A stretch of 64,000 bases of DNA from positions 109,966-173,965 of the forward strand of contig JAQTRS010000003.1 in assembly GCA_028711705.1 (NCBI GenBank), read 5' to 3'. Numbering within the stretch: position 1 is the first letter of the stretch; each line of letters opens with the position of its first letter. Below are positions 1,714 to 48,478 of the stretch, in pieces. The notes under the pieces are model-generated. The model was not told where the DNA came from, made no database searches, and saw only the letters and a program-made list of their open reading frames with translations. This DNA comes from Candidatus Moraniibacteriota bacterium (lineage in GTDB: Bacteria > Patescibacteriota > Minisyncoccia > Moranbacterales > UBA1568). A program made the translations under genes and the position numbers.

Positions 1714-2259
1714 ATGAGCGTCCCATTTGCTGTTACCTTTGTTGATCCAGAGAGTCTGATTCGCCAGTTGACCATTTCTTCCGGATCGGTAGTGGCTGAT
1801 TTCGGTTGCGGTTCCGGATATTTCTCGCTCGCGTTCGCGAAGGCGGTCGGCAAAGAAGGCAAAGTCATCGCTTTGGATATACTGCCATCCGCTTTGGATG
1901 CGGTCGCCAGCCGCGCAAGGATGGCTGGATTTACGCAGGTTTCAACCAAGCGTGCCAATCTGGAAAAGGAAAACGGGTCGGGTTTGGCGCCGGAGAGCGT
2001 AGATTGGGTTATCCTCAAGGATATTTTGTTCCAGAACAAGAGCAAGGACATCATCCTTAAGGAAGTGCATCGCGTCGTTCGTCCGGGCGGGCATGTGCTA
2101 TTGATGGAATGGAAGAATACGGATGCATCGGTCGGGCCGGATCTTCATTTGAGGATTTCTCGGGAAGAGCTGACCTCATTGGTTCAATCATCGGGGTTTT
2201 CTGTGCAAAAAGAACTCTCGGTAGGGGATTTCCACTATGCATTTTTGCTGATGAAGTAG
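1714..2259 (+). CDS. class I SAM-dependent methyltransferase
   Basis: Motif I VADFGCGSGYFS, followed by an acidic residue after beta2 (IALDIL) and PGGHVLL motif. 181 aa. Confidence 0.75.
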   Translation: MSVPFAVTFVDPESLIRQLTISSGSVVADFGCGSGYFSLAFAKAVGKEGKVIALDILPSALDAVASRARMAGFTQVSTKRANLEKENGSGLAPESVDWVILKDILFQNKSKDIILKEVHRVVRPGGHVLLMEWKNTDASVGPDLHLRISREELTSLVQSSGFSVQKELSVGDFHYAFLLMK

Positions 2260-2286
2260 TCGTTACTCGATAGTCTTCGAATTATC

Positions 2287-3651
2287 ATGAAAAAAATACA
2301 AAAAATTATAGCTTTGTGTCTGATGTTGACTTCCTCGGTGATGCTTTCGGGCTGCGGGTTCAAGGATAATTCTCAAAAGTACGGCGTCAAGCTTGAAATT
2401 TGGGGGGTGTTTGACGATACGGATGCCTACGGTTCGATACTGAGCGATTACAAGAAACTCAATCCCTATATCACGGAAATCAAGTACAAGAAGCTCAACG
2501 TTGACACCTATAAGCAAGATCTTCTGGATGCGCTCGCCTCGGGAAAGGGCCCCGACATTTTCCTGATCCGCAATTCATGGGTACCGTCTTTTCAGGATAA
2601 GATTGTCGCAGCTCCCGCAACGTTCACCGACGAGCGAGGCTTCCGCGAGGCATTTGTCGATGTTGTGGCTAGCGATTTTATGGATGCCGACAAGAAGATC
2701 TATGGTGTGCCGCTCAGCGTCGATTCGCTCGGCCTTTATTATAATAAGGATATTTTCAATGCTGCCGGTATTCTCACGCCGCCGGCCACCTGGGAGGATT
2801 TCGCGCGTGATGCCGCCCTGCTTACCAAAGTGGATGAATTCGGCAATATCACACAGGCAGGCGCTGCTATCGGAACCGCCTATAATATCAACCGTTCCAC
2901 TGACGTGCTTTCGGCGATGATGCTTCAGGCAGGCGTCCCTTTCCATACGGACAGGAGTACCGGTATTGACTTCAAGAATGGTGAGCCGGCCCTTGAGTTT
3001 TATACGCAGTTCGCCAATACGCAGTCGCCGACCTATACCTGGAATACTCGGCAGCACTATTCAGTCGATGCGTTCTATGAAGGGCAGACTGCTATGATGG
3101 TCAATTATTCGTGGCAGTACGAGACGCTTAAGCACAAAAATGCCAAGCTCAATATCGGTGTAGCGCCACTCCCTCAATTCGCGGAGGGCACCAAAGCGAA
3201 TTATGCCAACTATTGGGGCTATGTGGTCGCTAAGAACAAGGAATTCGGACCGGAAGTGACGGATAAGACATTGCAGGACAAATTGCGCGTGCACGAAGCC
3301 TGGGAATTCTTACGCTATTTGACGATGCCCAACGGCAAGGCCATCACTTTGTATAATGCTATTACCGGTACGGCCAAGGAATTCCCGTTGGCGACCGATC
3401 CGGCTCAGGTGTATCTGTCGCAAACAAAAAAACCGGCCGCCAGGCGCGATTTGATCGAGCTTGCGCGACGCGATCTGGTGCTGGGCCCGTTCGCGGAGGG
3501 GAATATCATTGCGAAGAACTGGACGCAGGCTAACCCAGAGGCGGTGGAAACTATTTTCGCCGAGGTGATCGATTCGATCAATCGCGGCGCCGCGACCGTG
3601 CATGGCGCTTTAGGTGTAGCACAGAATCGCATAGGCTACCTGATAAAGTAG
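2287..3651 (+). CDS. ABC transporter extracellular solute-binding lipoprotein (family 1, sugar-type)
   Basis: Signal peptide with lipobox MLSGC. 454 aa, with overall similarity to sugar/oligosaccharide SBPs (DIFLIRNSW..., YGVPLSVDSLGLYYNKDIF). No permease or ATPase partner lies in the window. Confidence 0.7.
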   Translation: MKKIQKIIALCLMLTSSVMLSGCGFKDNSQKYGVKLEIWGVFDDTDAYGSILSDYKKLNPYITEIKYKKLNVDTYKQDLLDALASGKGPDIFLIRNSWVPSFQDKIVAAPATFTDERGFREAFVDVVASDFMDADKKIYGVPLSVDSLGLYYNKDIFNAAGILTPPATWEDFARDAALLTKVDEFGNITQAGAAIGTAYNINRSTDVLSAMMLQAGVPFHTDRSTGIDFKNGEPALEFYTQFANTQSPTYTWNTRQHYSVDAFYEGQTAMMVNYSWQYETLKHKNAKLNIGVAPLPQFAEGTKANYANYWGYVVAKNKEFGPEVTDKTLQDKLRVHEAWEFLRYLTMPNGKAITLYNAITGTAKEFPLATDPAQVYLSQTKKPAARRDLIELARRDLVLGPFAEGNIIAKNWTQANPEAVETIFAEVIDSINRGAATVHGALGVAQNRIGYLIK

Positions 3652-3674
3652 AGATGTAATGTGTTTGTAAAAAT

Positions 3675-4586
3675 ATGGTTATGATGATACGGAAGTTTTT
3701 TGCTTCTCAAAAAGCGTATAGCGTCGTGTTTGCCAGCTTCGTTTTTTTGAGCTTTCTTTTTATGCCGAACGCGACAGATGCTGCCGGTCTTGTGCCCTGC
3801 GGAACGGACAATAATTCGCCGTGCACCCTCTGCCATTTGGTCGTCGGTATAAAGAGTCTGATCGATTGGGGATTCGGCGTGATGACATTTTTCGCTATTG
3901 CGGTTATCGTGGCGATGGGTATCGTCTATATCGTGTCAGCGGGAAATCCTTCCATGACGACGACGGCGAAGAATGGCATCAAGGCTGCTTTGATCGGATT
4001 CCTTATCATGCTCGGCAGTTGGGTGATCGTGAATTTTTTCATGCTGACGCTCGCCAATAACGGTGTGGGCCGTGCGACCAGCTGGAACACGTTCACCTGC
4101 GATACGGCCACGAAGACACAACAGATCAATCAGACGCCAGCTACGCCGGGCTCTGTGACCGGTGGCACATTGTCGTGCACGACCGGTACCTGCGCCACCA
4201 ATTCGCAAGTTTCGGCAGCGGTGCGCAATAATGCATCCGGCCTGAATCCGAATATCCTGATGTCTATCATTGACGGTGGAGAAGGATGTAATAAAGCGAG
4301 TTCACCAGCGGGGGCTTGCGGGTATTCCCAGGTGATGCCGGCGTATAGGAAAAGCGTCTGCGGTCTGACGGGAACCGATGCGGATACATGCGCGGCGATG
4401 CAGAACGATCTGCAATTGGATATCAATTGCGGGGCGAAGTTTATCGCGACCGACTTCGCGGTGAGGTGCGGACCGAGCATTACCACTATCGCATCGTGCT
4501 ATAACACGGGAAATAGAAATAATTGTGGAGAGGGAAGTCCTCCCTATTGCCAGCGCGTAACGAGTTATTATAATTCATGTCCATAG
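3675..4586 (+). CDS. VirB2/TrbC-like pilin domain fused to SLT-type lytic transglycosylase domain
   Basis: N-terminus: signal peptide plus a two-helix hairpin with YIVSAGNPSMTTTAKNGIKAALIGFLIMLGSWVIV, the same fold and motif as downstream pilin paralogs. C-terminus: EGCNKASSPAGACGYSQVMPAY, which closely matches the SLT catalytic-core motif ES...SPAGAxGLMQLMP. Confidence 0.6.
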   Translation: MVMMIRKFFASQKAYSVVFASFVFLSFLFMPNATDAAGLVPCGTDNNSPCTLCHLVVGIKSLIDWGFGVMTFFAIAVIVAMGIVYIVSAGNPSMTTTAKNGIKAALIGFLIMLGSWVIVNFFMLTLANNGVGRATSWNTFTCDTATKTQQINQTPATPGSVTGGTLSCTTGTCATNSQVSAAVRNNASGLNPNILMSIIDGGEGCNKASSPAGACGYSQVMPAYRKSVCGLTGTDADTCAAMQNDLQLDINCGAKFIATDFAVRCGPSITTIASCYNTGNRNNCGEGSPPYCQRVTSYYNSCP

Positions 4587-4605
4587 CATCCTTGTTATCA
4601 ATCCT

Positions 4606-5295
4606 ATGAAAACATTACTCTTTATCCTCCTTGGCGTATTCTGCTTGAGCGCTCCTGCCCAGGCCGATGTCTTCGAATTACATTTTTCATATGATGCCAA
4701 GCAAAACACCCTCAATTTTACTGACAATCAAGACGCCGTGACGGTGAATAAGGAGAAGGATATCTCGATCGTCGAATTTTCCAAAAGCCCTTCTTCGGGT
4801 GATTTCGAATTCGCATTCATCGATGCGACCGGTTTTGAAATAGAGCGCAAAAATTTCACGCCGAAAGCCGGAAACTTCGTTGTGGAGACGCCGTATTACA
4901 GCATCGCGACCAAACTTATCGTACGTAAAATAGGTGTGGCCGAACCGATCCTTACCCGTGACATCAGCGCCTTGTCTACCTGCAATAACAATAAGATATG
5001 CGAATTCGAGAAAGGCGAGACCATCAACACCTGTCTTCCGGATTGCGGTTCCAGCAATGTGACCTATAGCGCGGAGACCAAAACGAAGCTTGAATCCTCC
5101 AACAATATCGTACGTGATGAGAAGACGGGATCCATCTTGCTGAACAATGTCAAAGTGGCAGCACCGCAACCTGAAGCGCAACTGCAAACCCCGCAGCCGA
5201 CCGCCGGTATGTCCGCAACCATGGTGGCGATTCTGAGTGCCATCGCCTTGCTAGTTTTGGGAGGCATAGGATATTTCGTTTATAAAAAGTGGTAG
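4606..5295 (+). CDS. secreted protein with C-terminal TM anchor (hypothetical)
   Basis: Signal peptide MKTLLFILLGVFCLSAPAQA, a Cys-containing beta-rich body, and a C-terminal TM helix with a KKW tail. It lies within the pilin array. Confidence 0.5.
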   Translation: MKTLLFILLGVFCLSAPAQADVFELHFSYDAKQNTLNFTDNQDAVTVNKEKDISIVEFSKSPSSGDFEFAFIDATGFEIERKNFTPKAGNFVVETPYYSIATKLIVRKIGVAEPILTRDISALSTCNNNKICEFEKGETINTCLPDCGSSNVTYSAETKTKLESSNNIVRDEKTGSILLNNVKVAAPQPEAQLQTPQPTAGMSATMVAILSAIALLVLGGIGYFVYKKW

Positions 5296-5304
5296 CACTA
5301 GGAC

Positions 5305-5583
5305 TTGTTTATGTTCATAGAAAGAGCGCAAGCGGGGGGAGTGATAGATAATGCACCGACATTTTCGGAGGTCTTTCTTAATGCGTTCATTTTTTTGTTG
5401 CAAGTCGCAGGTATCATTGGTATAATCGGAGTAGTTCTTGCCGGTGTGCTGTATCTCTTTGCCAATGGTGATTCCCGGCGCATCCGTGCTGCAAAAAATA
5501 TGCTGATAGCCATCGTGATCGGCTTCGCCATCCTTTTCGGAGCCTGGATAATCGTACAGGCCGTGAGCAGCTTTTTTTCATAG
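5305..5583 (+). CDS. minimal VirB2/TrbC-like pilin
   Basis: 92 aa consisting essentially of two hydrophobic helices separated by the loop LYLFANGDSRRIRAAKNML. This is the same core as the other paralogs (YLxSAGD...K). The start codon is uncertain. Confidence 0.45.
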   Translation: MFMFIERAQAGGVIDNAPTFSEVFLNAFIFLLQVAGIIGIIGVVLAGVLYLFANGDSRRIRAAKNMLIAIVIGFAILFGAWIIVQAVSSFFS

Positions 5584-5701
5584 GACTCACGTGCTTGGCG
5601 CATTTTTTATTGCCTTGACCGCTTGCAAAGACAATCGAAACGGCCCCAAGCACGTGTGTCTTTATAAAAATAAAAAAATAAAAGGAAAGGAGGTGAGTAA
5701 T

Positions 5702-6100
5702 ATGAAAATATCAGTAAAACATATAGCTTCGTTTACATTAGTGCTCGCTATCTTGGTGTTGCCCCAAGTTGTTTTTGGCGCAACTATCGGTCAGCAAGGA
5801 GGATGGACACAGGGTCTGACGAATGGAACAACAGGAGGTGTCTCCCAGCAGACCCCGACTACCATCGTTACCAACATCATCAACTACGCACTGGCTATCA
5901 TCGGTTTCTTGGGCGTCTTAGGATTCATCATCTCGGGTATCATGTATTTGGTATCGGCAGGTGATGAGGCTATGGCCGAGAAAGCGAAAAACAACATGGT
6001 CTACGCCATCATCGGTGTGATCGTCGCACTGTTGGGATATGTCGTTATGGCCGCTATCAGCACATTATTGTCTGCCGGTGGTGCCAACAACGGACTTTAA
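5702..6100 (+). CDS. VirB2/TrbC-like pilin paralog
   Basis: RBS aaaggaaaggagg, then ATG at 5702 (the ORF-track start at 5591 is upstream of the RBS). Signal peptide MKISVKHIASFTLVLAILVLPQVVFG, a Gly/Thr-rich variable segment, and a conserved C-terminal hairpin IISGIMYLVSAGDEAMAEKAKNNMVYAIIGVIV. Confidence 0.65.
   Translation: MKISVKHIASFTLVLAILVLPQVVFGATIGQQGGWTQGLTNGTTGGVSQQTPTTIVTNIINYALAIIGFLGVLGFIISGIMYLVSAGDEAMAEKAKNNMVYAIIGVIVALLGYVVMAAISTLLSAGGANNGL
5870..6096 (+). repeat. 227-bp segment 100% identical to 6375-6601 (3' half of pilin gene)
   Basis: By-eye comparison shows the nucleotide strings from accaacatcatcaactacgc to caacaacggact are identical in the two adjacent genes. Confidence 0.85.
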
Positions 6101-6123
6101 TCCTCAAGACAGATCAAACAAAA

Positions 6124-6154
6124 AACAGTCTCGCTATCCCGAGATTGTTTTTTG
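6124..6154 (+). terminator. rho-independent terminator
   Basis: Hairpin aacagtctcg / ctatcc / cgagattgtt, followed by a T7 run. Confidence 0.65.
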
Positions 6155-6183
6155 TTTACGCTTCCGCATTTTTTTGGTATAGT
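6155..6183 (+). promoter_or_regulatory. sigma70-like promoter (TTTACG - 17 - TGgTATAGT) for the next pilin gene
   Basis: Extended -10 tggtatagt at 6175-6183; -35 tttacg at 6155-6160; 17-bp spacer. The same module recurs at 6659-6687. Confidence 0.45.
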
Positions 6184-6221
6184 GAAAGAGTAAAAAACAA
6201 AAAGGAAAGGAGGTGTGTCTT

Positions 6222-6605
6222 ATGAAAATAACCGTAAAAAACATTGCCTCATCGGTTTTGCTACTCGTCATCATGGCTGTGCCTCAGGTTGCCTTCGGTC
6301 AGTGGGATATGGGTCAAAACCAGTCGGCAGCGACAGCCTTCGGCGTCTCGACCTCGACCCCTACCGATATCCTGACCAACATCATCAACTACGCACTGGC
6401 TATCATCGGTTTCTTGGGCGTCTTAGGATTCATCATCTCGGGTATCATGTATTTGGTATCGGCAGGTGATGAGGCTATGGCCGAGAAAGCGAAAAACAAC
6501 ATGGTCTACGCCATCATCGGTGTGATCGTCGCACTGTTGGGATATGTCGTTATGGCCGCTATCAGCACATTATTGTCTGCCGGTGGTGCCAACAACGGAC
6601 TGTAG
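6222..6605 (+). CDS. VirB2/TrbC-like pilin paralog
   Basis: RBS aaaggaaaggagg, then ATG at 6222. Signal peptide MKITVKNIASSVLLLVIMAVPQVAFG. The variable middle differs from the 5702 gene, but the C-terminal 76 aa are identical to it. Confidence 0.65.
   Translation: MKITVKNIASSVLLLVIMAVPQVAFGQWDMGQNQSAATAFGVSTSTPTDILTNIINYALAIIGFLGVLGFIISGIMYLVSAGDEAMAEKAKNNMVYAIIGVIVALLGYVVMAAISTLLSAGGANNGL
6375..6601 (+). repeat. second copy of 227-bp perfect repeat
   Basis: Identical to 5870-6096. Confidence 0.85.
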
Positions 6606-6630
6606 ACGAAGACGGTTCTCATGCAAAACA

Positions 6631-6660
6631 ACCCTGCTACAGGCCGGGTTGTTTTTTGTT
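6631..6660 (+). terminator. rho-independent terminator
   Basis: Hairpin aacaaccc...gggttgtt, followed by a T-run. Same architecture as the 6124-6154 terminator. Confidence 0.6.
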
Positions 6661-6687
6661 TACGCTTTTACATTTTCTTGGTATAGT
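6659..6687 (+). promoter_or_regulatory. duplicated sigma70-like promoter module (TTTACG - 17 - TGgTATAGT)
   Basis: -35 tttacg at 6659-6664; -10 tatagt at 6682-6687, preceded by TGg. The sequence gtttacgc...ttggtatagtgaaa is nearly identical to 6152-6186. Confidence 0.45.
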
Positions 6688-6736
6688 GAAATAAGTTAAG
6701 CGCACGTGGTAAATTTTAAGCAATGAAAATAAAAAT

Positions 6737-7201
6737 ATGTCCACACACCTGAAGAGCCTGATGTTTCCTTTGGTGATGATCGCGGTATTGTTTGCTCCCT
6801 TCGTCTCTTTTGCGGAGGTCTGCGGTGGCGGCACTATCGGAGGAAGCACCGGCGGAGGTATTTATGCTGGCGGTACCCTGGGGGTGGGCAGCGGCGCTTG
6901 TGGTGCCTTCGGCGGCTTGTCTTTGTGGGGCCCGACGCCGTTCGGTCTTCCTGGCGGAAGCATTTTCGGTATCGTTGCGACGGTGGTTGATTGGCTCTTG
7001 GCGCTTTTCGGCATCCTGGGCATTTTAGGCTTCATCATTTCAGGTATCATGTATCTGCTTTCAGCAGGGGATGAGAAGACGGCCGATAAGGCCAAAGCAG
7101 GACTCAAATACTCTATCATCGGTATTGTCGTCGGTCTGTCCGGTTTCGTCATTATGCAGGCGATTAACGGTCTTTTGAGCGGCATGGCAGGCGCATACTA
7201 G
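6737..7201 (+). CDS. VirB2/TrbC-like pilin paralog (Gly-rich ectodomain)
   Basis: Signal peptide, a Gly-rich variable region (GGGTIGGSTGGGIYAGGTLGVGSG), and a C-terminal hairpin IISGIMYLLSAGDEKTADKAKAGLKYSIIGIVVG. Confidence 0.6.
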   Translation: MSTHLKSLMFPLVMIAVLFAPFVSFAEVCGGGTIGGSTGGGIYAGGTLGVGSGACGAFGGLSLWGPTPFGLPGGSIFGIVATVVDWLLALFGILGILGFIISGIMYLLSAGDEKTADKAKAGLKYSIIGIVVGLSGFVIMQAINGLLSGMAGAY

Positions 7202-7242
7202 TGTCTTGCAGAGTAAATAGGATATAACTTTACACAAAACAT

Positions 7243-7887
7243 ATGTCGGTCACTCGAGAAAAAGCTGCATTCTTCAATCAGAGTCTCAAGGCCCTTCTAT
7301 TCGCTATCGTCGTTGCCGGTATATCGGTGGTATTTGAGCCCGTTTCTGCGGCGCCGGCTTACTGCACCTCGTCCGCAGCGCTCTATCAATGCGTGGCCCC
7401 GGGAACAAATTGCGCTTCCCTTGGATCCACCATGGTGGGTGATTCGGCCTGCGACACTGCCTGCAACGGAGGTTGGAAGTATTGCGGTTCGCAAGCACCG
7501 ACACCGCCGCCAACAGCCGCTCCTGCATCAGCGACGGGTGTCAGTTCGGCTGCAGCAGCAGGAGGGGCGACGTGCGGTGCAGGATTTTCGGCGACGGCAG
7601 GCGTGTGCTTCCCGACCGATACGGGACTTCCGGATCCTGCCGATGGTATCGCGCAGATTTTGGGAAACTTCTTCAGTTGGCTGCTGATTATCTTTGGTTT
7701 CTTGGCTGTTGGAGCCTTCGTTATTTCCGGTATACAGTACCTTGTCTCCGCCGGGGATGAGGATATGGCTAAGACGGCGAAGCGCAATATGAAATGGTCT
7801 ATCATCGGTGTGATTGTCGGGCTTTCGGGCTGGATTATCATGCAGGCCGTCGCCAATGCCCTCACCGCGCAGACGTCGATCTTCTAG
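7243..7887 (+). CDS. VirB2/TrbC-like pilin paralog (Cys-rich ectodomain)
   Basis: Signal/TM segment, an ectodomain with about 9 Cys residues, a Pro/Ala/Thr linker, and a C-terminal hairpin VISGIQYLVSAGDEDMAKTAKRNMKWSIIGVIVG. Confidence 0.6.
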   Translation: MSVTREKAAFFNQSLKALLFAIVVAGISVVFEPVSAAPAYCTSSAALYQCVAPGTNCASLGSTMVGDSACDTACNGGWKYCGSQAPTPPPTAAPASATGVSSAAAAGGATCGAGFSATAGVCFPTDTGLPDPADGIAQILGNFFSWLLIIFGFLAVGAFVISGIQYLVSAGDEDMAKTAKRNMKWSIIGVIVGLSGWIIMQAVANALTAQTSIF

Positions 7888-7923
7888 CGATGCGATATAA
7901 ACATATTTTTTAAAACAGCGACT

Positions 7924-8850
7924 ATGGTAACAAGCACCTGGCAAACATTTCTTCATAAGCGAAGCGCGACATTCTTATTGGCAGTCATGGTTATTGCTAG
8001 CGGATTTGTTGGCAATACGCAAGAAGCGCAGGCTGCGATAACCAAGGCTGCCTGTGAGGCACTCGGCACCGGATACAGCTGTTTGGCGGCGAGTGATCCT
8101 GCTGCTGCCGGACGAGAGAGTGTTGATCAGTGCAATATGAACACCGGGTTTCCTATAGTGACCGGGAACTGCTATAAGCCCTTGCCGCCGCCAAGCAATA
8201 CCGGACCAGGAACAACTACAGGTTCAGGAAGCAACACGGGACCAGGAACGTCTACGGGCCCTGGTAGTAATACTAGTCCGGGAACAACTACGGGAACAAC
8301 AACTGGAACCACCGCGACTGGAACCGGTGTTACCACCATATCCTTTCAGAATCCCTTGCAGTACAATACCGTACAAGATGTGCTAGGAAGCCTACTCACC
8401 ACGCTTCAGGGCATCATCGTGATCCTGTGCATCATCTTCATCATCATCGGCGCCATCCTCTACATCACCTCTGCCGGCGATAGCAAGCGGACGTCCGCCG
8501 GGAAGCTCGCCATCACCGCCGCCCTCATCGGATTGGCCATCGCCATCGCTGCTCCGTCATTCCTCAAGGAAATCTCGAATATCCTCGGATGGAACAATAC
8601 CCCTGCCAATGTGAGCGCTTCGCTTTCGATCTCGGCCATCCTTACCAATGTGCTCAACTTCCTTTTGGGCATCGTGGGTATCATCGCGATCATCATGCTC
8701 GTCATCGGTGCTATCATGTACCTTTCGGCGGCGGGGGATGAAGACCGTATCGATACCGGTAAGAGTATTGTGAAGTATTCCATTATCGGCATTATTATCG
8801 CTTTCTCAGCCTTGCTTCTCGTCAAGCAAGTCGCCACGTTTTTCCTATAA
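7924..8850 (+). CDS. pilin paralog with two tandem VirB2/TrbC-like hairpin domains
   Basis: Cys-containing N-terminal domain, a low-complexity linker (GPGTTTGSGSNTGPGTSTGPGSNTSPGTTTGTTTGTTATGTG), and then two successive pilin cores (ILYITSAGDSKRTSAGKLAI... and IMYLSAAGDEDRIDTGKSIVKYSIIG...). Confidence 0.6.
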   Translation: MVTSTWQTFLHKRSATFLLAVMVIASGFVGNTQEAQAAITKAACEALGTGYSCLAASDPAAAGRESVDQCNMNTGFPIVTGNCYKPLPPPSNTGPGTTTGSGSNTGPGTSTGPGSNTSPGTTTGTTTGTTATGTGVTTISFQNPLQYNTVQDVLGSLLTTLQGIIVILCIIFIIIGAILYITSAGDSKRTSAGKLAITAALIGLAIAIAAPSFLKEISNILGWNNTPANVSASLSISAILTNVLNFLLGIVGIIAIIMLVIGAIMYLSAAGDEDRIDTGKSIVKYSIIGIIIAFSALLLVKQVATFFL

Positions 8851-28459: not shown

Positions 28460-30175
28460 ATGCCAGAACAACAACCATCGGAAGAACTTATACCGGACGA
28501 GGTACTGTACCAGTTATTGCTTGAGACAGGATCGGTACCGCAGGCATCGCTTGATGTCGCCGCGCAGCGTGCTAAGGAGGAGCATACTTCTTTGTATGAG
28601 GCTATTTTATGGCATGATTTCGTGTCCGATGAGAAACTCTGCCGATTGGCGGCCGATTTTTTGCAGATGCCCTTCGTGCTGCTTGCGGGAATCGCCATCG
28701 AGGAAGATGTCTTGCGAACGATTCCGGAAGTGGTTGCCAAGAAAAACGCCATCATCGTTTTTCGGAAAGATACGGATGGCTTGCATATCGCGACCAAGCA
28801 GCCAGATAATGTTCAGATTATCGATTTTATACGAAGAAAGACAGGGATGTCCGTTACAGTGTATCTTTCGATGTCCCAAGATATAGCGAACGCACTCCTT
28901 TTATACGGAAAAAATATCACCAAAGCATTTGACGATATTATACACGAGAGTCTACTTGATGCGAAAGGGTCGTCGAGCGATCAGAATGCGTTGCCTATCA
29001 TCAAGATAGTAGACAATATCCTCTCGTATGCGTATCAGAACAAGTCCTCTGACGTGCATATCGAACCGCGAGAAGAAGGGTCTTTGGTGCGCTTTCGTAT
29101 CGATGGCATCTTGCATGATATCGTTACGCTTCCGCTTGAGATCCATCCGCAGATCGTGTCGCGCATAAAAGTGCTAGCAAAGCTCCGTACGGATGAACAT
29201 CAGGCGCCTCATGATGGCAAGATCCGTTTTGAATCGGAGGGTGAAGCTTTGGACATCCGTGTGTCGGTGGTGCCGGTAACGGAAGGGGAGAAAATAGTGA
29301 TGCGCCTCCTCTCGGAGCGTTCGCGTCAGTTTTCTTTGTCCAATCTCGGTTTCGGATCGAGCGATTTGGCTAAGGTGAACGAAGCCTATAACAAGCCATA
29401 CGGAACTATCCTGGTTACCGGACCGACCGGTTGTGGAAAGACTACTACGTTGTACTCCATATTGAAGCTTCTTAATAATCGCAAGGTGAATATAATGACC
29501 ATCGAGGATCCGGTGGAATATGATATGGAAGGCGTCAATCAGATTCAGGTGAATACTAAGGCGAATCTTACGTTTGCGACCGGATTGCGGAGTATTCTCC
29601 GTCAGGATCCCAACATCATTTTGGTGGGTGAAATACGTGACAAAGAAACGGCTGGTATCGCGATCAATCTGGCTATGACCGGACACCTCGTACTTTCTAC
29701 GCTGCACACCAATGATTCGGCGACAGCGGTTCCTCGTATGATCGATATGGATATCGAACCATTCCTACTCTCTTCGACTATCAATGTCATTGTCGCCCAG
29801 CGTCTCGTGAGAAAGATTCATGATGCTTGCCGTGTCAGCGAAGAGGTTTCTATTGAAGATCTGAACCAACGCTTGGGAGCTGCGCTCGTACATGAAGTAT
29901 TCGGTGATGCGAGCGAGTCTGGCAAAAGTGTGCGTCTGTACAGAGGAAAAGGATGCGATTTGTGCCATCAGACAGGATATCAGGGGCGCATCGGCGTGTT
30001 TGAGGTTATGACTATTGATGATAAGTTGCGCACCGCTATCACGAATCGCAAGGATGCGGCGACTATTGCCGATATCGCTATCGCTTCCGGGATGACGACG
30101 ATGCTTGAGGATGGTTTGGAGAAGGTAAAGCAAGGGATAACGACTTTGGATGAGGTGTTGAGGGTTATCAAATAG
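28460..30175 (+). CDS. pilB: type IV pilus assembly ATPase PilB (GspE family)
   Basis: N-terminal GspII_E domain, Walker A GPTGCGKTTT, His box, Walker B/Asp box and a tetracysteine-like motif (CDLCHQTG). 571 aa. Confidence 0.9.
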   Translation: MPEQQPSEELIPDEVLYQLLLETGSVPQASLDVAAQRAKEEHTSLYEAILWHDFVSDEKLCRLAADFLQMPFVLLAGIAIEEDVLRTIPEVVAKKNAIIVFRKDTDGLHIATKQPDNVQIIDFIRRKTGMSVTVYLSMSQDIANALLLYGKNITKAFDDIIHESLLDAKGSSSDQNALPIIKIVDNILSYAYQNKSSDVHIEPREEGSLVRFRIDGILHDIVTLPLEIHPQIVSRIKVLAKLRTDEHQAPHDGKIRFESEGEALDIRVSVVPVTEGEKIVMRLLSERSRQFSLSNLGFGSSDLAKVNEAYNKPYGTILVTGPTGCGKTTTLYSILKLLNNRKVNIMTIEDPVEYDMEGVNQIQVNTKANLTFATGLRSILRQDPNIILVGEIRDKETAGIAINLAMTGHLVLSTLHTNDSATAVPRMIDMDIEPFLLSSTINVIVAQRLVRKIHDACRVSEEVSIEDLNQRLGAALVHEVFGDASESGKSVRLYRGKGCDLCHQTGYQGRIGVFEVMTIDDKLRTAITNRKDAATIADIAIASGMTTMLEDGLEKVKQGITTLDEVLRVIK

Positions 30176-30286
30176 CAGCCGAAATGTTTAGCTTTCGATC
30201 GACGGGCGATCGAGTCCGTTTGTGGATTGTGTGATATGATGCATCGGACCGGTATTGAGAGGAGTTTCATTTTTTAACGCATATGT

Positions 30287-31345
30287 ATGACTCTTTTTTC
30301 GCGGGCGAGTTTTTTGGATATCTTGTTGTTTACAAAACACCTTTCGGTGATGGTAAAGAGCGGCATTACAGTAGCCGAGTCAGTCAAATCCCTCAAGCAT
30401 CAGGCGAAAACAGGCGCTTTCAAAAGGATTCTCGATCAAGTATCGGCCGACATCGAAAACGGCGATCCTCTCGCGAAGGCACTTGCGAAGTATCCTCAGG
30501 CTTTCAGTCATTTCTATATCAATCTTATCGCTATCGGTGAAGAGTCGGGAGTGCTTCAGGAGAATTTGGATTTCCTGTCCAAGCAGTTGAGCAAGGAATA
30601 CGCGCTTCGAAAGAAAGTACAGGGCGTGCTCCTGTATCCGGCGATCGTGCTGACGGCCGCCTTTGTGATCAGCGCCCTGGTGAGCATCTTCGTTTTGCCG
30701 AAACTTGTGAATCTTTTTGAGTCTTTCGATGTCGTTTTGCCGTTATCGACGCGTATCCTCCTATCCATCGCTCATGTCATGCAATCGCATGGAGTGATCA
30801 TATTCGTAACGATTCTTGCGGCGAGCATTTTTTTTCGGGTTTTGGCTTTCGTGCCACAGATCAGAAAATGGTATCACTGGTTATTTTTGAGTATGCCGAT
30901 TATCGGGCCATTCCTGCGAAATGTATACATTTCTTCCTCGTGTCGTGATTTGGGAATGATGCTTCAGGCGGGATTATCGATCACTCGTGCGCTGCGAGTG
31001 GAGTATGACACGATAAACAATCTCGTATTCAAGGAATATGTGAAGAGTTTGCAACTTTCTATAGCAAGGGGCGGGACTTTGTCGGGCGAATTATTGACGG
31101 GGAATTTTTCGAAGATACCGCCTTTGGTTTCGAAAATGATTGAGGTCGGAGAAGGGACCGGAAAACTCGAAGAATCGCTTCTATATCTGGGGGATTTCTT
31201 CGAAGAGGAGATTGATAATACATCGAAGAATTTTTCCACTGTTTTGGAACCGATCTTGCTTTTATGTATCGGATTGGTGGTCGCATTTGTCGCGTTGGCG
31301 ATCATATCGCCGATTTATTCATTGACGGGATCTGTCCATAGGTAA
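30287..31345 (+). CDS. pilC: type IV pilus inner-membrane platform protein PilC (GspF family)
   Basis: Two GspF-type repeats and three TM segments. 352 aa. Confidence 0.85.
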   Translation: MTLFSRASFLDILLFTKHLSVMVKSGITVAESVKSLKHQAKTGAFKRILDQVSADIENGDPLAKALAKYPQAFSHFYINLIAIGEESGVLQENLDFLSKQLSKEYALRKKVQGVLLYPAIVLTAAFVISALVSIFVLPKLVNLFESFDVVLPLSTRILLSIAHVMQSHGVIIFVTILAASIFFRVLAFVPQIRKWYHWLFLSMPIIGPFLRNVYISSSCRDLGMMLQAGLSITRALRVEYDTINNLVFKEYVKSLQLSIARGGTLSGELLTGNFSKIPPLVSKMIEVGEGTGKLEESLLYLGDFFEEEIDNTSKNFSTVLEPILLLCIGLVVAFVALAIISPIYSLTGSVHR

Positions 31346-31356
31346 ACTGAGTTGCT

Positions 31357-31785
31357 ATGAAAAAAGGATTCACGCTTGTCGAGCTATTATTGGTCATCGC
31401 GCTCATTATGATTGTCGGGATGCTTTCGGCAGCTTTTTATACCCGATTCCTGATGCAGAATAATGTTATCAATACGACTACGCAATTGGTCGGCAGCCTT
31501 CGGAAAGCGCAGATGTATAGTATGATGGGAAAACGGGGCGGTTCCTGGGGTGTGGCGGCTTTTCCTGGATCGATAGTGCTGTTTCAGGGTAATTCATATG
31601 CGTCGCGCGATGAGGCTTTGGATGAAGTGTTTGTCACGAGGCCCGATATTTCTACGGGAGATTTTTCGGAAATAGTCTTTGCGAAGACGACTGGACTTCC
31701 TGATATCGCACCGACTATCGTTATTTCCGAAGGTGGCGAGACGCGTACGTTGACGGTCAGTAATCAGGGTATAGTGAGCCAATAA
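31357..31785 (+). CDS. prepilin-type N-terminal cleavage/methylation domain protein (minor pilin)
   Basis: MKKG-FTLVELLLVIALIMIV: class III signal with Gly at -1 and Glu at +5. Confidence 0.7.
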   Translation: MKKGFTLVELLLVIALIMIVGMLSAAFYTRFLMQNNVINTTTQLVGSLRKAQMYSMMGKRGGSWGVAAFPGSIVLFQGNSYASRDEALDEVFVTRPDISTGDFSEIVFAKTTGLPDIAPTIVISEGGETRTLTVSNQGIVSQ

Positions 31786-31807
31786 CTATATGACAAGGAG
31801 ATTGAAA

Positions 31808-32284
31808 ATGAATACGCGTGAGTGCAAGGGATTCTCCGTTTTGGAGATCATTTTGGCCGTGGGAATTTTCGTGGTTATGGTTTCGGGGATGGTGATCGCC
31901 GTGCTTTCAGGCATGGAGACGAACCGTCTCGGACAAGAGGAAACGGTCGCGACGGAATATACGACGGAGGGGATAGAGGCAGCCCGATCGATACGTAATC
32001 TGAATTTTTCGGCATTGAATGATACTTCCGGAACTGGCATCGATCAAGTTTCCGGCGTGTGGTCTTTTTCTGGAAACGAAAACGTGCTTGATGGGAAATA
32101 TACGAGGGTTATTTCGATCGAGAGCGTGCGGCGGGATGGTTCCGGTAATATCGTTGAGAGCGGCGGCGGTATCGATCCGGATACGAAAAAAGTGACGGTG
32201 ACGACATCATGGGCTATTTCTTCATCGAGATATGACTCGGTGGTACTGATGACATATCTTACCAACTGGAAAGCTCCGATATGA
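31808..32284 (+). CDS. prepilin-type minor pilin
   Basis: RBS aaggag, then ATG at 31808. Class III signal KG-FSVLEIILAVGIFVV. Confidence 0.65.
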   Translation: MNTRECKGFSVLEIILAVGIFVVMVSGMVIAVLSGMETNRLGQEETVATEYTTEGIEAARSIRNLNFSALNDTSGTGIDQVSGVWSFSGNENVLDGKYTRVISIESVRRDGSGNIVESGGGIDPDTKKVTVTTSWAISSSRYDSVVLMTYLTNWKAPI

Positions 32285-32829
32285 TTATGAAACATACACA
32301 GCATACTATGCGGAGAGGATTCACTTTTATCGAGGTGCTTTTGTATATGGGCATCGTTTCATTGATGCTCACAGCGATCGTTTCTTTTGCATGGGTCATT
32401 ATCGATGCGGGAGTGAAGAGCGCTACGCAACAGGAAGTTTACGCCACGACAAGATATGTGAGCGAGCGGCTGATGTATGAAATCAGGAACGCTGCCGGTA
32501 TCGATGTTTCCGATTTCGATGTGAATCTTGCAAGTGATGAGACGAAAAATTGTTCTTTGGCGCAAGAGGGAACAAGTGAGTCGCTCCGTATCTTCGTGTC
32601 GAATAACCAAGTATTTATGAGGCTCCCTTCTTTGGAGATTGTCCCTTTGCAATCGACGGATACGAAAGTGACGAATCTTACCTTTACAGACTATTCTTCC
32701 GGTGATAGCAAGGCAAAATACGTCGGGTTTGTTTTGACGGTAGAGTCGAATTATCCGGGTGCAGCAGGACGGCAGGAATATCAGGAAAGCGTTACGATAC
32801 GATCCGGTGTCGAAGTGAGAAGTCATTAA
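32281..32829 (+). CDS. prepilin-type minor pilin
   Basis: Class III signal RRG-FTFIEVLLYMGIVSLML. The start overlaps the previous stop (ATGA). Confidence 0.65.
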   Translation: MIMKHTQHTMRRGFTFIEVLLYMGIVSLMLTAIVSFAWVIIDAGVKSATQQEVYATTRYVSERLMYEIRNAAGIDVSDFDVNLASDETKNCSLAQEGTSESLRIFVSNNQVFMRLPSLEIVPLQSTDTKVTNLTFTDYSSGDSKAKYVGFVLTVESNYPGAAGRQEYQESVTIRSGVEVRSH

Positions 32830-32879
32830 TCGTGTGCGAAGAGCGGGGTATTTTGTGACTTATTATAACAAACGAAGGT

Positions 32880-33254
32880 ATGAACAAAGGTTTTATTGCC
32901 ATGACAACCGTATTGATCCTTTCTGTGGCGATGGTCGCGATTATGACCACGGTGTCTTTGCTCTCTATCGGGGAATCGCAATCAGGATTCGCTTTGATGA
33001 AAGGGGAGGGCGCTTTACAATTTTCGGAAGGTTGCGCCGAGGATGCGCTGCTGCGTATTCGTGCCGATGAAGCCTATATTGGAGGCACTTTTTCTCATCC
33101 GGAAGGCGAATGCACGGCGGATATCGCTTCGGACGGGAGTATTAAAACAATCACGGTACGATCGAACGCTGTTGATTATAGCCGAAGCATCTCGATCATG
33201 CTTGAGCGGACGGTGACAGGTATTACGCTCATAAGCTGGCACGAGATACCGTAA
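32880..33254 (+). CDS. pilin-like membrane-anchored protein (PilX-like minor pilin candidate)
   Basis: MNKG-FIAMTTVLILSVAMVAIM hydrophobic N-terminus, lacking Glu at +5. Assigned by operon position. Confidence 0.4.
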   Translation: MNKGFIAMTTVLILSVAMVAIMTTVSLLSIGESQSGFALMKGEGALQFSEGCAEDALLRIRADEAYIGGTFSHPEGECTADIASDGSIKTITVRSNAVDYSRSISIMLERTVTGITLISWHEIP

Positions 33255-42195: not shown

Positions 42196-45100
42196 ATGAA
42201 GGAGGAAAATCATACAAAAATGAAGAACACATATCGATTCCGGTTTCTGGCATTTCTCGCTATCTTTTTAGTGGTTGGTTTTTTTGTTTCTACTCAGGAG
42301 TATTCGTTTGCGGCGACCGGTACGAACAAGAAAATAAATTTTCAAGGAAAGGTGGTCAATAGCAACGGAACTAATGTTGCTAACGGATCATACGGCTTTA
42401 TTTTCAGCATTTATACCGTTTCAAGCGGTGGCGCGAATGTGTGGACGGAAAGCAAATCCCTGACCGTGACCGACGGTATTTTCCAGACTGACTTAGGGGA
42501 TGTTACTACGCTTCCAGGATCTATCGACTTCAATACGGACAACATTTACCTTGGTATCAATTTCAACGGTGATGGCGAGATGTCGCCACGTGTGCAATTC
42601 GATGCCGTTCCTCAGGCATTCAACGCTCAGAAAGTAGCAGGACTTACAGTAACCGACACGACGGGCACACTGACGATTCCGAATGGTAAAACCATTTCTT
42701 TCGCGGATACTTTTTCAACTTCCGGTGCTTTCGCAACGACGCTTACTGCAACCGGAACAACCACTGTGACGCTTCCGACCACCGGGACACTTGCGACGTT
42801 ATCAGGCAGTGAGATTTTGAACAACAAAACCATCGGAAGCGCAGGCCTTATTTTTTCGGGAGCGGCTACGGATATCACGACTACTTCTGGAGAATCATTG
42901 GTGATTGTTGCGGCCGGTGCAGGAACGGTAGATATTCAGGACGCCACTACCGTTGACTCGCTTACCGCGGATACGGGGGGTATTTCTATTGCCGCCGGTC
43001 AATCGTATACGGGTTCGGGCGCGGTGACGCTTTCATCAGGAGGTGCTGCCGGTCTGACGATCGATTCTGCATCAGATGTGCTTACAGTGGCCACGGGAGA
43101 CTATCTTGCACTGAGTCATTCCGGCGTTGCGAGCGCCGCGGCAGGATATATCTGGTATGATTCGGGGGATAATAAATTCAAGATCAACGAAAACGGTACG
43201 ACCAAGACGTTATGTAATCTTACAGACGGTGGCTGCGGATCGGGTGGCGCGAGCGATCTGCAGACAACGTATGGTAATGATGCTGATGGATCGAATGCTA
43301 CGATTTCACTGACGGCTGCCGATGATGGTTTGGTCTTCACTAATCCGACCTCCGGTGGTACGGATGCGAGCTCTTTCCTTGCTTATTTCAACCAGCAGAA
43401 TACGACGGCCGCTGTATCGGCAGTCGATATTACTCAGGCTTCCAATGCTTCCAATGCGGTCAATATTACAGCCAATGCTATCGATGGCGAGATAGGACTT
43501 GATATCACGGCTAACGGTCTGACGTCGGGTAAGGGTATAGATGTCTCGTCATCATCGACTGCATTTACAGGCAATCTTTCCAATATATCTTTGACAGGAT
43601 CCAGTGCTGCTAATACCGGTAATGTGCTTGCGGTGTCAAATACTGGTACGGCGAATGCTAACACCTCGTTTTTTATCAATCATCAGGCAACTGGAACTGG
43701 CAATCTCGCTATGCGCGTGGATGATCAATCAAGTGATGCGACGCCGTTCGTTATCGATGGCAATGGCAATGTCGGCATCCAAACGAGTGCGCCTACAGAT
43801 GCTCTTCAGGTGGGAAGTGCGACGAATCGTGCCAATATGACAGCTTATGGTGATATTACGGCGGAAGGATATGATGTCCAACGCAGTCTGGCCGGCATCA
43901 TTGATATCTTTGTGTATGATACGACGCGTGATGCGGATGGCGGGGAATGGCGCAACTCGATCATTTCACAGCAGATGTCTTGGGCGACGGAAACCAAAGA
44001 TGATGGTATCGGCGATGCTTGCGATATCGCAGCTGATGATCGCTGCGGCAAGTCGATTTTTCCTCGTAAGGCGATTATAGCTACTACAGCGAGCGGCCTG
44101 TATATTTTTGATGGTGCGGACAATTCGCTATGGATGAAGTTTACCCAAGCAGGTACGTATGCTTTGGGTGCAGATACGAATAATAACCCGACAGGAGTGG
44201 GTGCGCAGAATGGTGTCATAGTAGTCGGAACCAATGGCACATCGGCTACCGGTATGTACGCTTTCGATTTTAAGCAGGATGCGATGTATCGTTATGATGC
44301 AACGAATCGCGTGCAGGGTGATAAAAATATCGGCAATCGAAATTCGACGGTGTCCTACGCGACCAATGCGAATACAAATTTTGCTCTTGTGAACTCGGTT
44401 GTTAATGATGTTTCGATCGCACTCATCACTTCATCGACTGAAGGTATGATCAACACGTTGACGCTACCATTAGATAGCGCAACAAGTCCGATGCGAGGCG
44501 TGACGCTTATTGCTGCAGCGACGGATACGGGGGTTTCCGTCGTCAATACTGCCAATCAAAGAGTGTTTAGTTATTCGGAAACGACAAACGATGACTATAA
44601 TCAGGTTGTCATCACAAGCCGTGGAAGGATGTATGCGACCAATGAGACCCAGCAGCAATTAGAAGAATGGAGAAATATCGATAGGGATGTGGCATCGGAA
44701 CTCAACGGAAACCCGGATCGATTCTATGATCAGACTGTCGGACGATCACCTATTACAACAGGAACGGCACCGACTATTTCCACTTCGCCCGGAACCCTTG
44801 CCGTTATCGAACGAAACTCAGCTGCTCGCGAATCAGCTGCTACAACCCTTCTTGAGACTGGTGATATCGTTTTTGTCGGTACGGATCAGGGTTTGGCCGA
44901 AGTGCATACTTCGGGAGGAAGCCTTGTTGGCGCCGCATGGTCCAAAATAACAACTTCGACGGTAGCGACTCCGTATATGGTCGGCGCTGCACGCTCAGTC
45001 TATCTTTTTGAGGAGGCTGCCGGTTCGACGGTCGCAGCAAGTTCTATCGGTGCGGCCGGTACGACCAATAACCCACTTAGATCAGCAGTGACAGGAACTG

Positions 45101-47970: not shown

Positions 47971-48001
47971 ATAAAATGTTTTGGAGGTATACTATAGACA
48001 T

Positions 48002-48478
48002 ATGAATAAACGTTTGCGTCATACATCACACGGATTCACACTGATTGAACTTTTACTTGTTATTGGAATTATCGCCGTACTTGCGGTAGTGGTTTTCGTG
48101 GCGCTTGATCCTGCGAAACGATTTGTGGATGCTCGAAATTCGAGACGGGTTTCCGATGCGCAGTTCATTCTCACCGCGGTACGCCAGTACGTGATCGACA
48201 ATGGTAGTACACTACCGACTGGTCTTGATACAATCGAGAAACAGCTCGGAACAGGCGTCTCAGGGTGTAGTCTTACGTACGGAGTCTGCAGCGCCAATAC
48301 GAATTATTGCCTTGATATGTCAAGCGATTTGGCGAAATATCTCAAGTCTTTGCCATTCGATCCGAAAGAGGGAACGTCCGTGAAAACTCACTATACGATT
48401 CAAGTCGATAGCAACAATATTATCACGGTACGCGCCTGCGATGCTGAAAACAATGAGGAAATAGTCGTTTCAGGTTAA
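48002..48478 (+). CDS. type IV pilin paralog
   Basis: HG-FTLIELLLVIGIIAVLAVVVFVALDPAKRFVDARNSRR is nearly identical to the N-terminus of the 34725 pilin. Conserved Cys pair. RBS ggagg upstream. Confidence 0.75.
   Translation: MNKRLRHTSHGFTLIELLLVIGIIAVLAVVVFVALDPAKRFVDARNSRRVSDAQFILTAVRQYVIDNGSTLPTGLDTIEKQLGTGVSGCSLTYGVCSANTNYCLDMSSDLAKYLKSLPFDPKEGTSVKTHYTIQVDSNNIITVRACDAENNEEIVVSG

Follow-up and report, generated by a model that had tools for sequence, protein, structure and literature searches.

Why should two neighbouring pilin genes be identical to the base over a long 3' tract when their 5' halves have diverged? The question is raised by a locus on contig JAQTRS010000003.1 of a Candidatus Moraniibacteriota genome (assembly GCA_028711705.1), within a 64,000-nucleotide stretch, positions 109,966 to 173,965, that we analysed as a whole and refer to as the window. 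The genes, here called g1 (5702-6100, forward strand) and g2 (6222-6605, forward strand), lie in tandem, and a protein search places their products, through NCBI records, on a 176,858-bp contig of a Candidatus Moranbacteria metagenome-assembled genome (MAG). A preliminary description of this DNA had offered very recent duplication or ongoing homogenisation as the origin of the identity, and had likened the pattern to antigenic-variation loci. We favour, with a probability of roughly 85%, domain-restricted gene conversion (concerted evolution) between two old VirB2-like paralogs, g1 being of a type that we call A and g2 of a type B, the last event in the window genome having gone from A to B.

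Both proteins exceed the curated cutoff of 26.6 bits for PF18895 (T4SS_pilin) in a search with the family hidden Markov model, g1 (132 aa; NCBI PHT88_03290) at 39.4 bits and g2 (127 aa; NCBI PHT88_03295) at 39.3 bits. On profile evidence we assign them to the VirB2/TrbC-like pilins of type IV secretion systems (T4SSs) and not to the pilins of type IV pili; the label 'pilin' in the preliminary description holds in the former sense and fails in the latter. Their layout is of the VirB2 type, with a long predicted signal peptide, two hydrophobic helices and a short charged loop. In g1 the signal peptide is encoded by 5702-5779, the type-A mature N-terminal segment by 5780-5869 and the two-helix core by 5870-6097; the corresponding parts of g2 are 6222-6299, 6300-6374 (type B) and 6375-6602. 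An AlphaFold2 model of g1 consists of a helix at residues 2-30 (the signal peptide), a low-confidence or disordered stretch at 31-51 and a hairpin of helices 52-84 and 89-125, with a predicted local distance difference test (pLDDT) score of 87-93 in the hairpin. The loop between the two helices, SAGDE..AEKAK, is kept across the family in the protein alignment. A profile of the g1/g2 family aligned with the last member of the pilin array in which the genes lie, a protein that passes the TrbC cutoff, at an hhalign probability of 98.2%, and the family also matched NF045849 (Mbov_0395, a pilin-like conjugal transfer protein of a mycoplasma integrative and conjugative element) below threshold, at 28 bits vs 40. 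A collection of 5.8 billion proteins held 47 homologs of g1, all of which carry PF18895.

Compared base by base over the whole run, 5870-6096 and 6375-6601 agree at 227 of 227 positions, as the preliminary description had stated for this interval, and mismatches at 5869 and 6097 close the exact run at both ends. A repeat finder delimited a wider direct repeat around it (5851-6099 / 6356-6604; 249 nt, 97% identity), the only long direct repeat within the window. When the pairwise alignment of the two cassettes was scored per segment, nucleotide identity was 83% in the 5' untranslated region (UTR) with its Shine-Dalgarno sequence, 65% in the signal peptide, 39% with a 15-nt indel in the mature N-terminal segment, 100% in the C-domain tract and 51% in the region after the stop codon together with the terminator stem; in the T-tract and promoter module that follow (6145-6187 vs 6649-6691; repeat family D5, 43 nt) it was 91%. 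At the protein level the pair is 77% identical overall and 100% identical over a 76-residue core. Shuffling the aligned columns of the g1/g2 pair, which hold 70 mismatches in 381 nt, produced a longest identical run of 23 on average and 65 at most in 20,000 trials, vs the 227 observed.

The evolutionary history of the two parts was compared in eleven related contigs drawn from NCBI, ENA, JGI and Logan. A codon alignment of the g1/g2-like genes was split at the start of the core (NIINYAL, window nt 5873); an ungapped, stop-anchored comparison of the pairs in L011 and L017 was discarded, since indels at the C-terminus put it out of register, and the codon alignment was used instead. Nucleotide identity in the N-part follows type (A-A 58-82%, B-B 44-69%, A-B 40-59%). 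In the core it follows genome: the window pair is 99.6% identical vs at most 80.4% to other genomes in the set, and copies 1 and 3 of locus L013 are 100% identical. Synonymous divergence (pS) of the window pair is 0.018 in the core vs a saturated 0.76 in the N-part, and the core pS of A/B pairs in other genomes is 0.32-0.67 (Fisher p <= 2e-5).

Neighbour-joining trees (300 bootstraps, 22 genes from 12 sources) were computed separately for the partitions. In the core tree, the A and B genes of one genome pair with each other at bootstrap values of 100% in the window, 99.7% for L001/L002, 81% in L017, 67% in L011, 59% in L012 and 46% in L015, and all four L013 copies group together. The tree of the mature N-terminal segment gives 0% support to every within-genome pair and separates A from B. 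Because the two trees disagree, we conclude that the duplication is old and that the core has been homogenised repeatedly and independently. The sequence mosaic and the phylogenetic incongruence recur in independent assemblies. Among orthologs, the ratio of nonsynonymous to synonymous divergence (pN/pS) of the mature N-terminal segment is 0.35 (A) and 0.44 (B) vs 0.17-0.22 in the core; judged by these ratios, the segment is less constrained than the core, yet under purifying selection and not hypervariable. The signal-peptide tree places the signal peptide of window g2 with the A-like ones. Taken with its Shine-Dalgarno element, this suggests that an older exchange at the 5' end also touched g2, in which case only about 75-90 nt of g2 would be truly B-specific. 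Constraint at the nucleotide level, such as an overlapping open reading frame (ORF) or an RNA element, was considered as a cause of the identity and rejected: the same segment is about 20% divergent between genomes, mostly at synonymous sites.

The closest relative of the window locus indicates how the last conversion ran. It is represented by two contigs, L018 (SPAdes) and L021 (MEGAHIT, from a different ENA analysis), which overlap at 100% and together give an A and a B gene; its A protein is 84% identical to g1. Its A/B pair shares an exact tract of 100 nt that begins at precisely the codon where the window tract begins (ACC AAY, encoding the Thr-Asn ahead of IINYAL) and runs to a point past the SAGDE loop. 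Within these 100 nt, eight synonymous-type sites differ between the window and the relative, each of them common to both paralogs of a genome, and none is type-specific, which is the signature of concerted evolution. Over the other 128 nt the sequence shared by the window pair has the base of the relative's A gene at 23 sites and that of its B gene at 5, so that A was probably copied into B when the pair was last converted. Exact identity and this site agreement make 5870-6096 (+) the probable donor copy and 6375-6601 (+) the probable recipient. The homogenisation, or gene conversion, proposed in the preliminary description is thus supported by a core that sorts by genome, an N-part that sorts by type and lineage-specific substitutions shared by paralogs, and further by the independent exact tracts of L018/L021 and L013.

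Our model is as follows. g1 and g2 are ancient duplicates in a seven-gene chromosomal VirB2/TrbC-like array, each encoding a signal peptide, a mature segment of about 25-30 residues of type A (GGWxxGLxNGxTG) or type B (QWDMxxNQ...), and a core formed by a two-helix hydrophobic hairpin. Homologous recombination, presumably of RecA type, would copy the core-coding segment from one gene to the other, non-reciprocally and again and again (gene conversion). The core would evolve in concert within each genome, and the type-specific N-terminal segment would be kept by purifying selection. The last event here would be very recent, probably A to B, and exactly 227 nt long, beginning with the codon that follows the type-specific segment and reaching to the last one of the gene. 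Unequal recombination, driven by the same homology, would have the loss, gain and chimerism of cassettes in relatives as its outcome. The N-terminal segment is likely the exposed part that distinguishes the functions of the two proteins, because the termini of VirB2-family proteins flank the membrane hairpin and the diversity of the Anaplasma proteins sits at the mature N-terminus. Identical cores, for their part, may let the two isoforms share assembly partners or co-polymerise.

Such outcomes can be followed in the relatives, where the order of the locus is methyltransferase, solute-binding protein, pilin-SLT fusion, 90-aa pilin, a slot for g1/g2-like genes and three larger pilins; a degenerate DNA pattern scan of metagenome contigs gave one locus, L022. 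In the protein alignment the N-terminus of type A (g1-like) reads ...FG / xT..GGWxxGLxNGxTGGVSxxTPTxI and that of type B (g2-like) ...FG / QWDMxxNQxxAxxFGVSTSTPTxIL. The slot holds an A gene only in L001 and L014, and an A and a B gene in the window, L011, L012, L015, L017 and L018. In L013 it holds four tandem g1/g2-like copies and an inserted Fic-domain gene (1108-2136 and 2244-4347). An exact repeat of 326 nt (2357-2682 / 3534-3859), stop codon and terminator included, is common to copies 1 and 3 of that locus, whose N-parts are 82% identical; in copy 3 the signal peptide is followed by an insertion of 30 residues rich in Cys, Thr and Pro. The slot of L020 (5001-5381) is occupied by a single gene in which a B-type mature segment follows an A-type 5' UTR (GGAGGTGAGTAAT) and an A-like signal peptide, a chimera of the kind expected if tandem A and B genes had recombined within their signal-peptide regions. 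The preliminary description had predicted copy-number variation and chimeric 5'/3' combinations, and both were found among these related genomes.

One arrangement extends beyond the array. The MAG that holds L001 has its array A gene at L001 7992-8396 and a B gene alone at an unlinked locus (L002 7992-8384), next to acyltransferase, MarR and pyruvate formate-lyase genes. This B gene has its own TTTACG...CGGTATAAT promoter and an A-like Shine-Dalgarno sequence, and its core is 90.7% identical at the nucleotide level to that of the L001 A gene, a likeness that would imply ectopic conversion, or else mis-binning. The MAG is labelled 'uncultured Bdellovibrionales', and its content matches the Moranbacteria loci.

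Three short contigs from relatives, each of a different assembly, L018 (at its end, 2497), L021 (at its start, 1) and L022 (at its start, 1), break off within the sequence for the pilin core; for two of them the break falls in the exact A/B repeat. The repeat therefore breaks short-read assemblies, and short-read MAGs of this clade probably show its pilin arrays in fragments and give too low a count of them.

Several points weigh against conversion between old paralogs. The identity rests on a MAG consensus, and the g1 and g2 proteins are each found on a single contig. Bootstrap support for the within-genome pairing is moderate (46-67%) in three genomes, L011, L012 and L015, where conversion is of greater age or incomplete. 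Although L001 and L002 belong to one MAG, they are separate contigs, so that mis-binning of this pair is possible. Neither fold search nor sequence search gave a specific match to a solved pilin: Foldseek of the g1 model against the PDB found nothing at E <= 0.001 and only generic helical hairpins at E >= 1, and a profile search of PDB sequences returned one irrelevant weak match. Because the fold is so simple, these searches are uninformative on VirB2 membership. No VirB3, VirB4, VirB6 or VirD4 domain was found in any ORF of at least 120 aa in the window. The production and the assembly of both proteins are putative.

Other explanations were weighed against the same evidence. Unlikely, in our estimate, is a reading in which the signal-peptide and core segments act as recombination anchors and the N-terminal segment as a swappable module. 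Moranbacteria would then keep a small set of surface variants, for host recognition, of one VirB2-like filament; conversion of the core would be selected since the isoforms stay able to co-polymerise or to use the same assembly machine; and the gain, loss, relocation and chimerism of cassettes between genomes would be how epibionts retune their host range.

Very unlikely is an artefact of assembly or polishing, in which the copies are in reality diverged or single and the MAG consensus has homogenised or duplicated them. The source is a MAG with each protein on one contig only, an exact repeat of this length exceeds common assembly k-mers, and the contigs of relatives that end inside the domain mark a region that is hard to assemble. 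Tandem A and B genes were, however, recovered in independent assemblies from ENA, JGI, NCBI and Logan, and the closest relative has an exact A/B tract with the same 5' boundary in SPAdes and MEGAHIT assemblies that agree completely. The limits of the window tract make biological sense, one lying where the type-specific segment stops and the other at the last codon, and De Bruijn assemblers do not homogenise diverged repeats. Assembly breaks inside the repeat themselves argue that such repeats are real in these populations.

We give an equally slim chance to programmed antigenic variation, that is, a contingency system in which conserved ends anchor high-frequency shuffling of exposed N-terminal cassettes into an expression site, in the manner of pilE/pilS in Neisseria or msp2 in Anaplasma. 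The conserved signal peptide and core do flank a divergent exposed segment, chimeras and copy gain and loss occur among relatives, and a role in antigenic or host-range variation has been proposed for the arrays of VirB2 paralogs in Anaplasma and Bartonella (PMC3556328; passages of PMC12102498). Yet both are complete genes with a Shine-Dalgarno sequence and terminator of their own, silent, truncated or promoterless cassettes are absent, and a promoter module was identified for g2 only. The main types number only two, each with orthologs across genomes and under purifying selection, and the changes are seen between genomes, not within a population. The part converted is the conserved core, the reverse of the logic of pilE/pilS. 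Neither simple-sequence repeats nor a recombination-initiating element such as a G-quadruplex (G4) motif is present: Tandem Repeats Finder reported no repeat within either gene and, upstream of the g1 Shine-Dalgarno sequence, only AAAAATAA x2.2, and the promoter spacers hold T7 and T4CT2, which are short for slippage. The suggestion of an antigenic-variation or contingency locus, made in the preliminary description, is thus rejected, given the full-length copies, the conserved types and the absence of phase-variable repeats.

Least credible of all, and likewise rejected, is the very recent duplication that the preliminary description also put forward, one cassette being copied in tandem and its 5' half then diverging fast under diversifying selection: tandem units of Shine-Dalgarno sequence, core, terminator and promoter do repeat at 505-520-nt spacing, and the A-type copies of L013 with their exact tract could be one such case, but orthologs of A, and likewise of B, occur in at least seven other genomes and the two types form separate groups in the N-terminal tree, their N-terminal segments are under purifying selection, and a young duplicate cannot show such a contrast in pS within one gene pair.

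Arrays of this kind have precedents. Passages of a survey of 3,035 Patescibacteria genomes (PMC12102498, Quinonero-Coronel et al. 2025) report 441 VirB2-like arrays of 2-11 genes, with a within-array amino acid identity of 25% on average and 54% at most and a pilin gene near virB4 in 1,135 of 1,948 assemblies, and liken the arrays to the VirB2 paralogs of Bartonella and Anaplasma. As in these arrays of the Patescibacteria, or candidate phyla radiation (CPR), the window has tandem chromosomal genes for small PF18895/PF04956 pilins in a monoderm Patescibacterium of reduced genome, and its array opens with a VirB1-like (SLT) fusion gene. Unlike them, g1 and g2 are, at 77%, outside the range given in those passages of PMC12102498, the other members of the window array being as divergent as in the survey, and virB4 was not found in the window. 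The passages of the survey retrieved by keyword are silent on concerted evolution of the core.

Families of tandem virB2 paralogs are present in Anaplasma phagocytophilum, A. marginale and Bartonella, in 8-15 copies depending on strain; every paralog encodes a signal peptide and two conserved hydrophobic helices, and most of the diversity falls in a short stretch where the mature protein starts and, in addition, close to its C-terminus (PMC3556328). The window locus resembles these families in its tandem paralogs, signal peptide, two helices, N-terminal diversity and variable copy number. It differs in its setting: those organisms are diderm intracellular pathogens in which the paralogs are linked to virB4-2 and immune evasion has been proposed, whereas the organism here is an environmental monoderm. 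It differs also in that its N-terminal segments are of two conserved types and not hypervariable, and in that homogenisation of the core by conversion is directly documented.

The process itself is a familiar one. RecA-dependent gene conversion drives the concerted evolution of bacterial duplicates, for example tufA/tufB of Salmonella and the rRNA operons. As in those cases, paralogs within a genome are closer to each other than orthologs are, exact tracts have sharp ends and lineage-specific substitutions occur in both copies. Here, in contrast, conversion is limited to one domain and the adjoining segment stays paralog-specific, which yields a stable mosaic, and the same process also acts on an unlinked copy (L002). 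In the pilE/pilS system of Neisseria, which concerns type IV pilus pilins, silent promoterless donors convert the variable part of one expression locus with the help of a dedicated initiating element. Non-reciprocal recombination between pilin copies with conserved segments in common is a shared feature, but the pilin family is unrelated, and silent donors, a single expression locus, conversion of the variable part and an initiating element are all absent here.

Gene conversion between tandem paralogs is textbook material and mechanistically ordinary, and since VirB2-like arrays have already been described in Patescibacteria, partial homogenisation is a modest addition. The arrays nevertheless matter: according to the available passages of PMC12857230, which cites Wang et al. 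2023, a six-pilin array is essential for Southlakia epibionticum, and few gene sets other than VirB2-like arrays have been shown to be indispensable to a cultivated Patescibacterium in its epibiotic life. In one clade of Moranbacteria, two members of such an array keep an identical polymerisation core and distinct, conserved N-terminal segments, in an arrangement that recombination remakes. This points to the N-terminal 25-30 residues, presumably exposed, as the functionally distinguishing part, and suggests that the two isoforms work in the same structure. In practical terms, the content of arrays is likely under-counted in MAG surveys, since the repeat breaks short-read assemblies of relatives inside these very genes.

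The signals for expression around g1 and g2 are also duplicated, in line with the duplicated ribosome-binding sites and terminator/promoter junctions noted in the preliminary description: both genes have the same Shine-Dalgarno sequence, both terminator hairpins fold and both promoter modules are TTTACG-17-TATAGT. The Shine-Dalgarno sequence, AAAGGAGG, was read from the DNA at 5686-5693 (+) for g1, 8 nt upstream of the ATG, and at 6206-6213 (+) for g2, and stands 8 nt ahead of ATGAAAAT in both. This strong element precedes every A-type ortholog. Among B-type genes it is found in the window, L002 and L011 only; it is missing ahead of B in L012, L015, L017 and L018, and where it is missing the B gene starts after AAAAATATG, as does the pilin gene downstream of g2 in the window, g3.

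Each of the two genes is followed by an intrinsic terminator. That of g1 (6116-6157, +) is an A-tract/T-tract stem of the bidirectional type (inverted repeat I3, 18-nt arms, 94% complementary) that folds at -22.2 kcal/mol (z = -7.5), its T-run overlapping the -35 of the next promoter. That of g2 (6625-6655, +) is the centroid stem in the fold of 6603-6670 (-19.2 kcal/mol, z = -2.4); its stem sequence is unlike that of the g1 terminator, its T-tract alike. A consensus scan located the g2 promoter module, TTTACG-17-TATAGT with a TG-extended -10, at 6155-6183 (+) and the same module with TG for the next pilin gene at 6659-6687 (+; family D5), but no comparable promoter for g1. In the relatives, an element TGGTAnAGT(G/A)AAA follows the hairpin terminator and precedes most of the other array genes examined, and the TGGTAnAGT element also stands ahead of the unlinked L002 B gene; it is absent from several intergenic regions, including that upstream of the A gene in the window, L001, L011, L012 and L015. 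Because the element is kept before array genes in relatives, the module shared within the window is a conserved promoter and not a mere scar of duplication. TGGTATAGTGAAA occurs at only two sites in the window, a count that is not significant alone (29 of 100 shuffles gave at least 2 matches at up to 2 mismatches); the meaning of the module comes from its conservation in relatives and not from its window-wide count. Compared by eye on the intergenic sequences, the identity of the two modules within the window appears higher than that between orthologous modules, and an older conversion possibly contributed to their likeness.

Between the 92-aa gene and g1 lies a long imperfect hairpin of 81 nt (5582-5662, +; inverted repeat I1) with a perfect core, CACGTGCTTGG / CCAAGCACGTG. 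It folds at -35.5 kcal/mol (z = -5.1), is without a T-run and matches no Rfam family; a terminator, an attenuator or a processing site are possibilities. A scan of the whole window at Rfam gathering thresholds found three tRNAs only, and a permissive scan of 5300-7300 gave sub-threshold terminator-like matches; no known RNA element accounts for the identical tract or for the upstream hairpin. L001 and L015 have a similar hairpin start (TGTGCTTGGCG / TTTGTTTGGCGCA) at the corresponding position. In L011 (4620-4680) and L012 (3715-3775), the region ahead of the A gene carries a palindromic sequence of the type GTCATTGCGAG(C/T)G..GCG..CAATC instead of the hairpin of the window; by its sequence, it looks like a dispersed intergenic repeat. 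CACGTG recurs at 6704-6709, downstream of cassette 2. The best sigma-70-like match of the region, TTGCAA-17-TATAAT with TG at 5398-5426, falls within the gene for the 92-aa pilin, in its coding sequence, and may be either an internal promoter directed towards g1 or a chance product of the codons for LQVAGIIGII.

g1 and g2 belong to a series of seven PF18895 genes that extends from 3675 to 8850, encodes eight pilin domains and is interrupted by a single non-pilin gene (4606-5295); it falls under the published definition of a Patescibacteria VirB2-like pilin array (at least two pilin genes, in tandem or with a one-gene gap, on the chromosome). The array opens with a 303-aa gene (3675-4586, +) that combines an N-terminal T4SS_pilin domain, scoring 26.6 bits and thus exactly at the PF18895 cutoff, with a Cys-rich C-terminal domain. 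Pilin-fusion genes stand first in the relatives as well (L001 6472-7593; L012 2348-3409; L014 3656-4681; L020 3666-4634), and orthologs in L012, L014 and L020 match PF01464, the SLT lytic transglycosylase (VirB1-like) domain. The window copy has no SLT match at E <= 0.01, and its C-terminal domain may have been replaced or have diverged. This VirB1-like fusion, recognised through its orthologs, is the sole link to T4SS machinery in the window, and the array presumably works with a T4SS encoded elsewhere in the genome.

The next gene (4606-5295, +) encodes a 229-aa protein with a predicted signal peptide and C-terminal membrane anchor and without a Pfam or NCBIfam match; counterparts are present in L011, L015 and L019 and absent from L001, L012, L014 and L020. 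It is followed by a small pilin of 90-92 aa (5305-5583, +), a minimal VirB2-like array member (PF18895 34.2 bits; TrbC PF04956 22.5, below cutoff) with a 90-aa ortholog at the same position in every syntenic relative. Downstream of g2, g3 (6737-7201, +) encodes a 154-aa pilin paralog (PF18895 33.7 bits). It is only 76% identical to g1 over 98 nt, and its core resembles that of the L001 ortholog, not g1/g2; it stands outside the A/B homogenisation. g4 (7243-7887, +) encodes a 214-aa paralog with a Cys-rich N-terminal extension (PF18895 48.8 bits). The last array gene, g5 (7924-8850, +), encodes 308 aa with two pilin domains and a Thr/Gly/Pro-rich repeat linker, and matches PF18895 in two stretches (74.5 bits) and TrbC PF04956 at 37.8 bits, above the cutoff of 27.9. 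Imperfect 18/36-nt tandem repeats at 8193-8309 encode the Thr/Gly/Pro/Ser-rich linker of g5 (TGPGTTTGSGSNTGPGTSTGPG...), a candidate, from its sequence, for length variation or glycosylation.

The array is flanked by housekeeping genes, upstream a methyltransferase and a solute-binding protein and downstream an SPFH protein, NusA, trigger factor, ClpP and RNase Y. An origin of the array in a mobile element was considered and rejected, these flanks being housekeeping genes with conserved synteny. The true type IV pilins of this genome, distinct from the VirB2-like array, are encoded by a separate type IV pilus cluster at 28460-33254, with a further gene at 47981-48478. The cluster contains a PilB-like T2SSE ATPase (28460-30175) and a PilC-like T2SSF protein (30287-31345), and the N_methyl prepilin-type genes are at 31357-31785, 32281-32829 and 47981-48478. 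The last of these adjoins a gene (42196-47970) for a 1,924-aa protein with a laminin-G/concanavalin-like domain.

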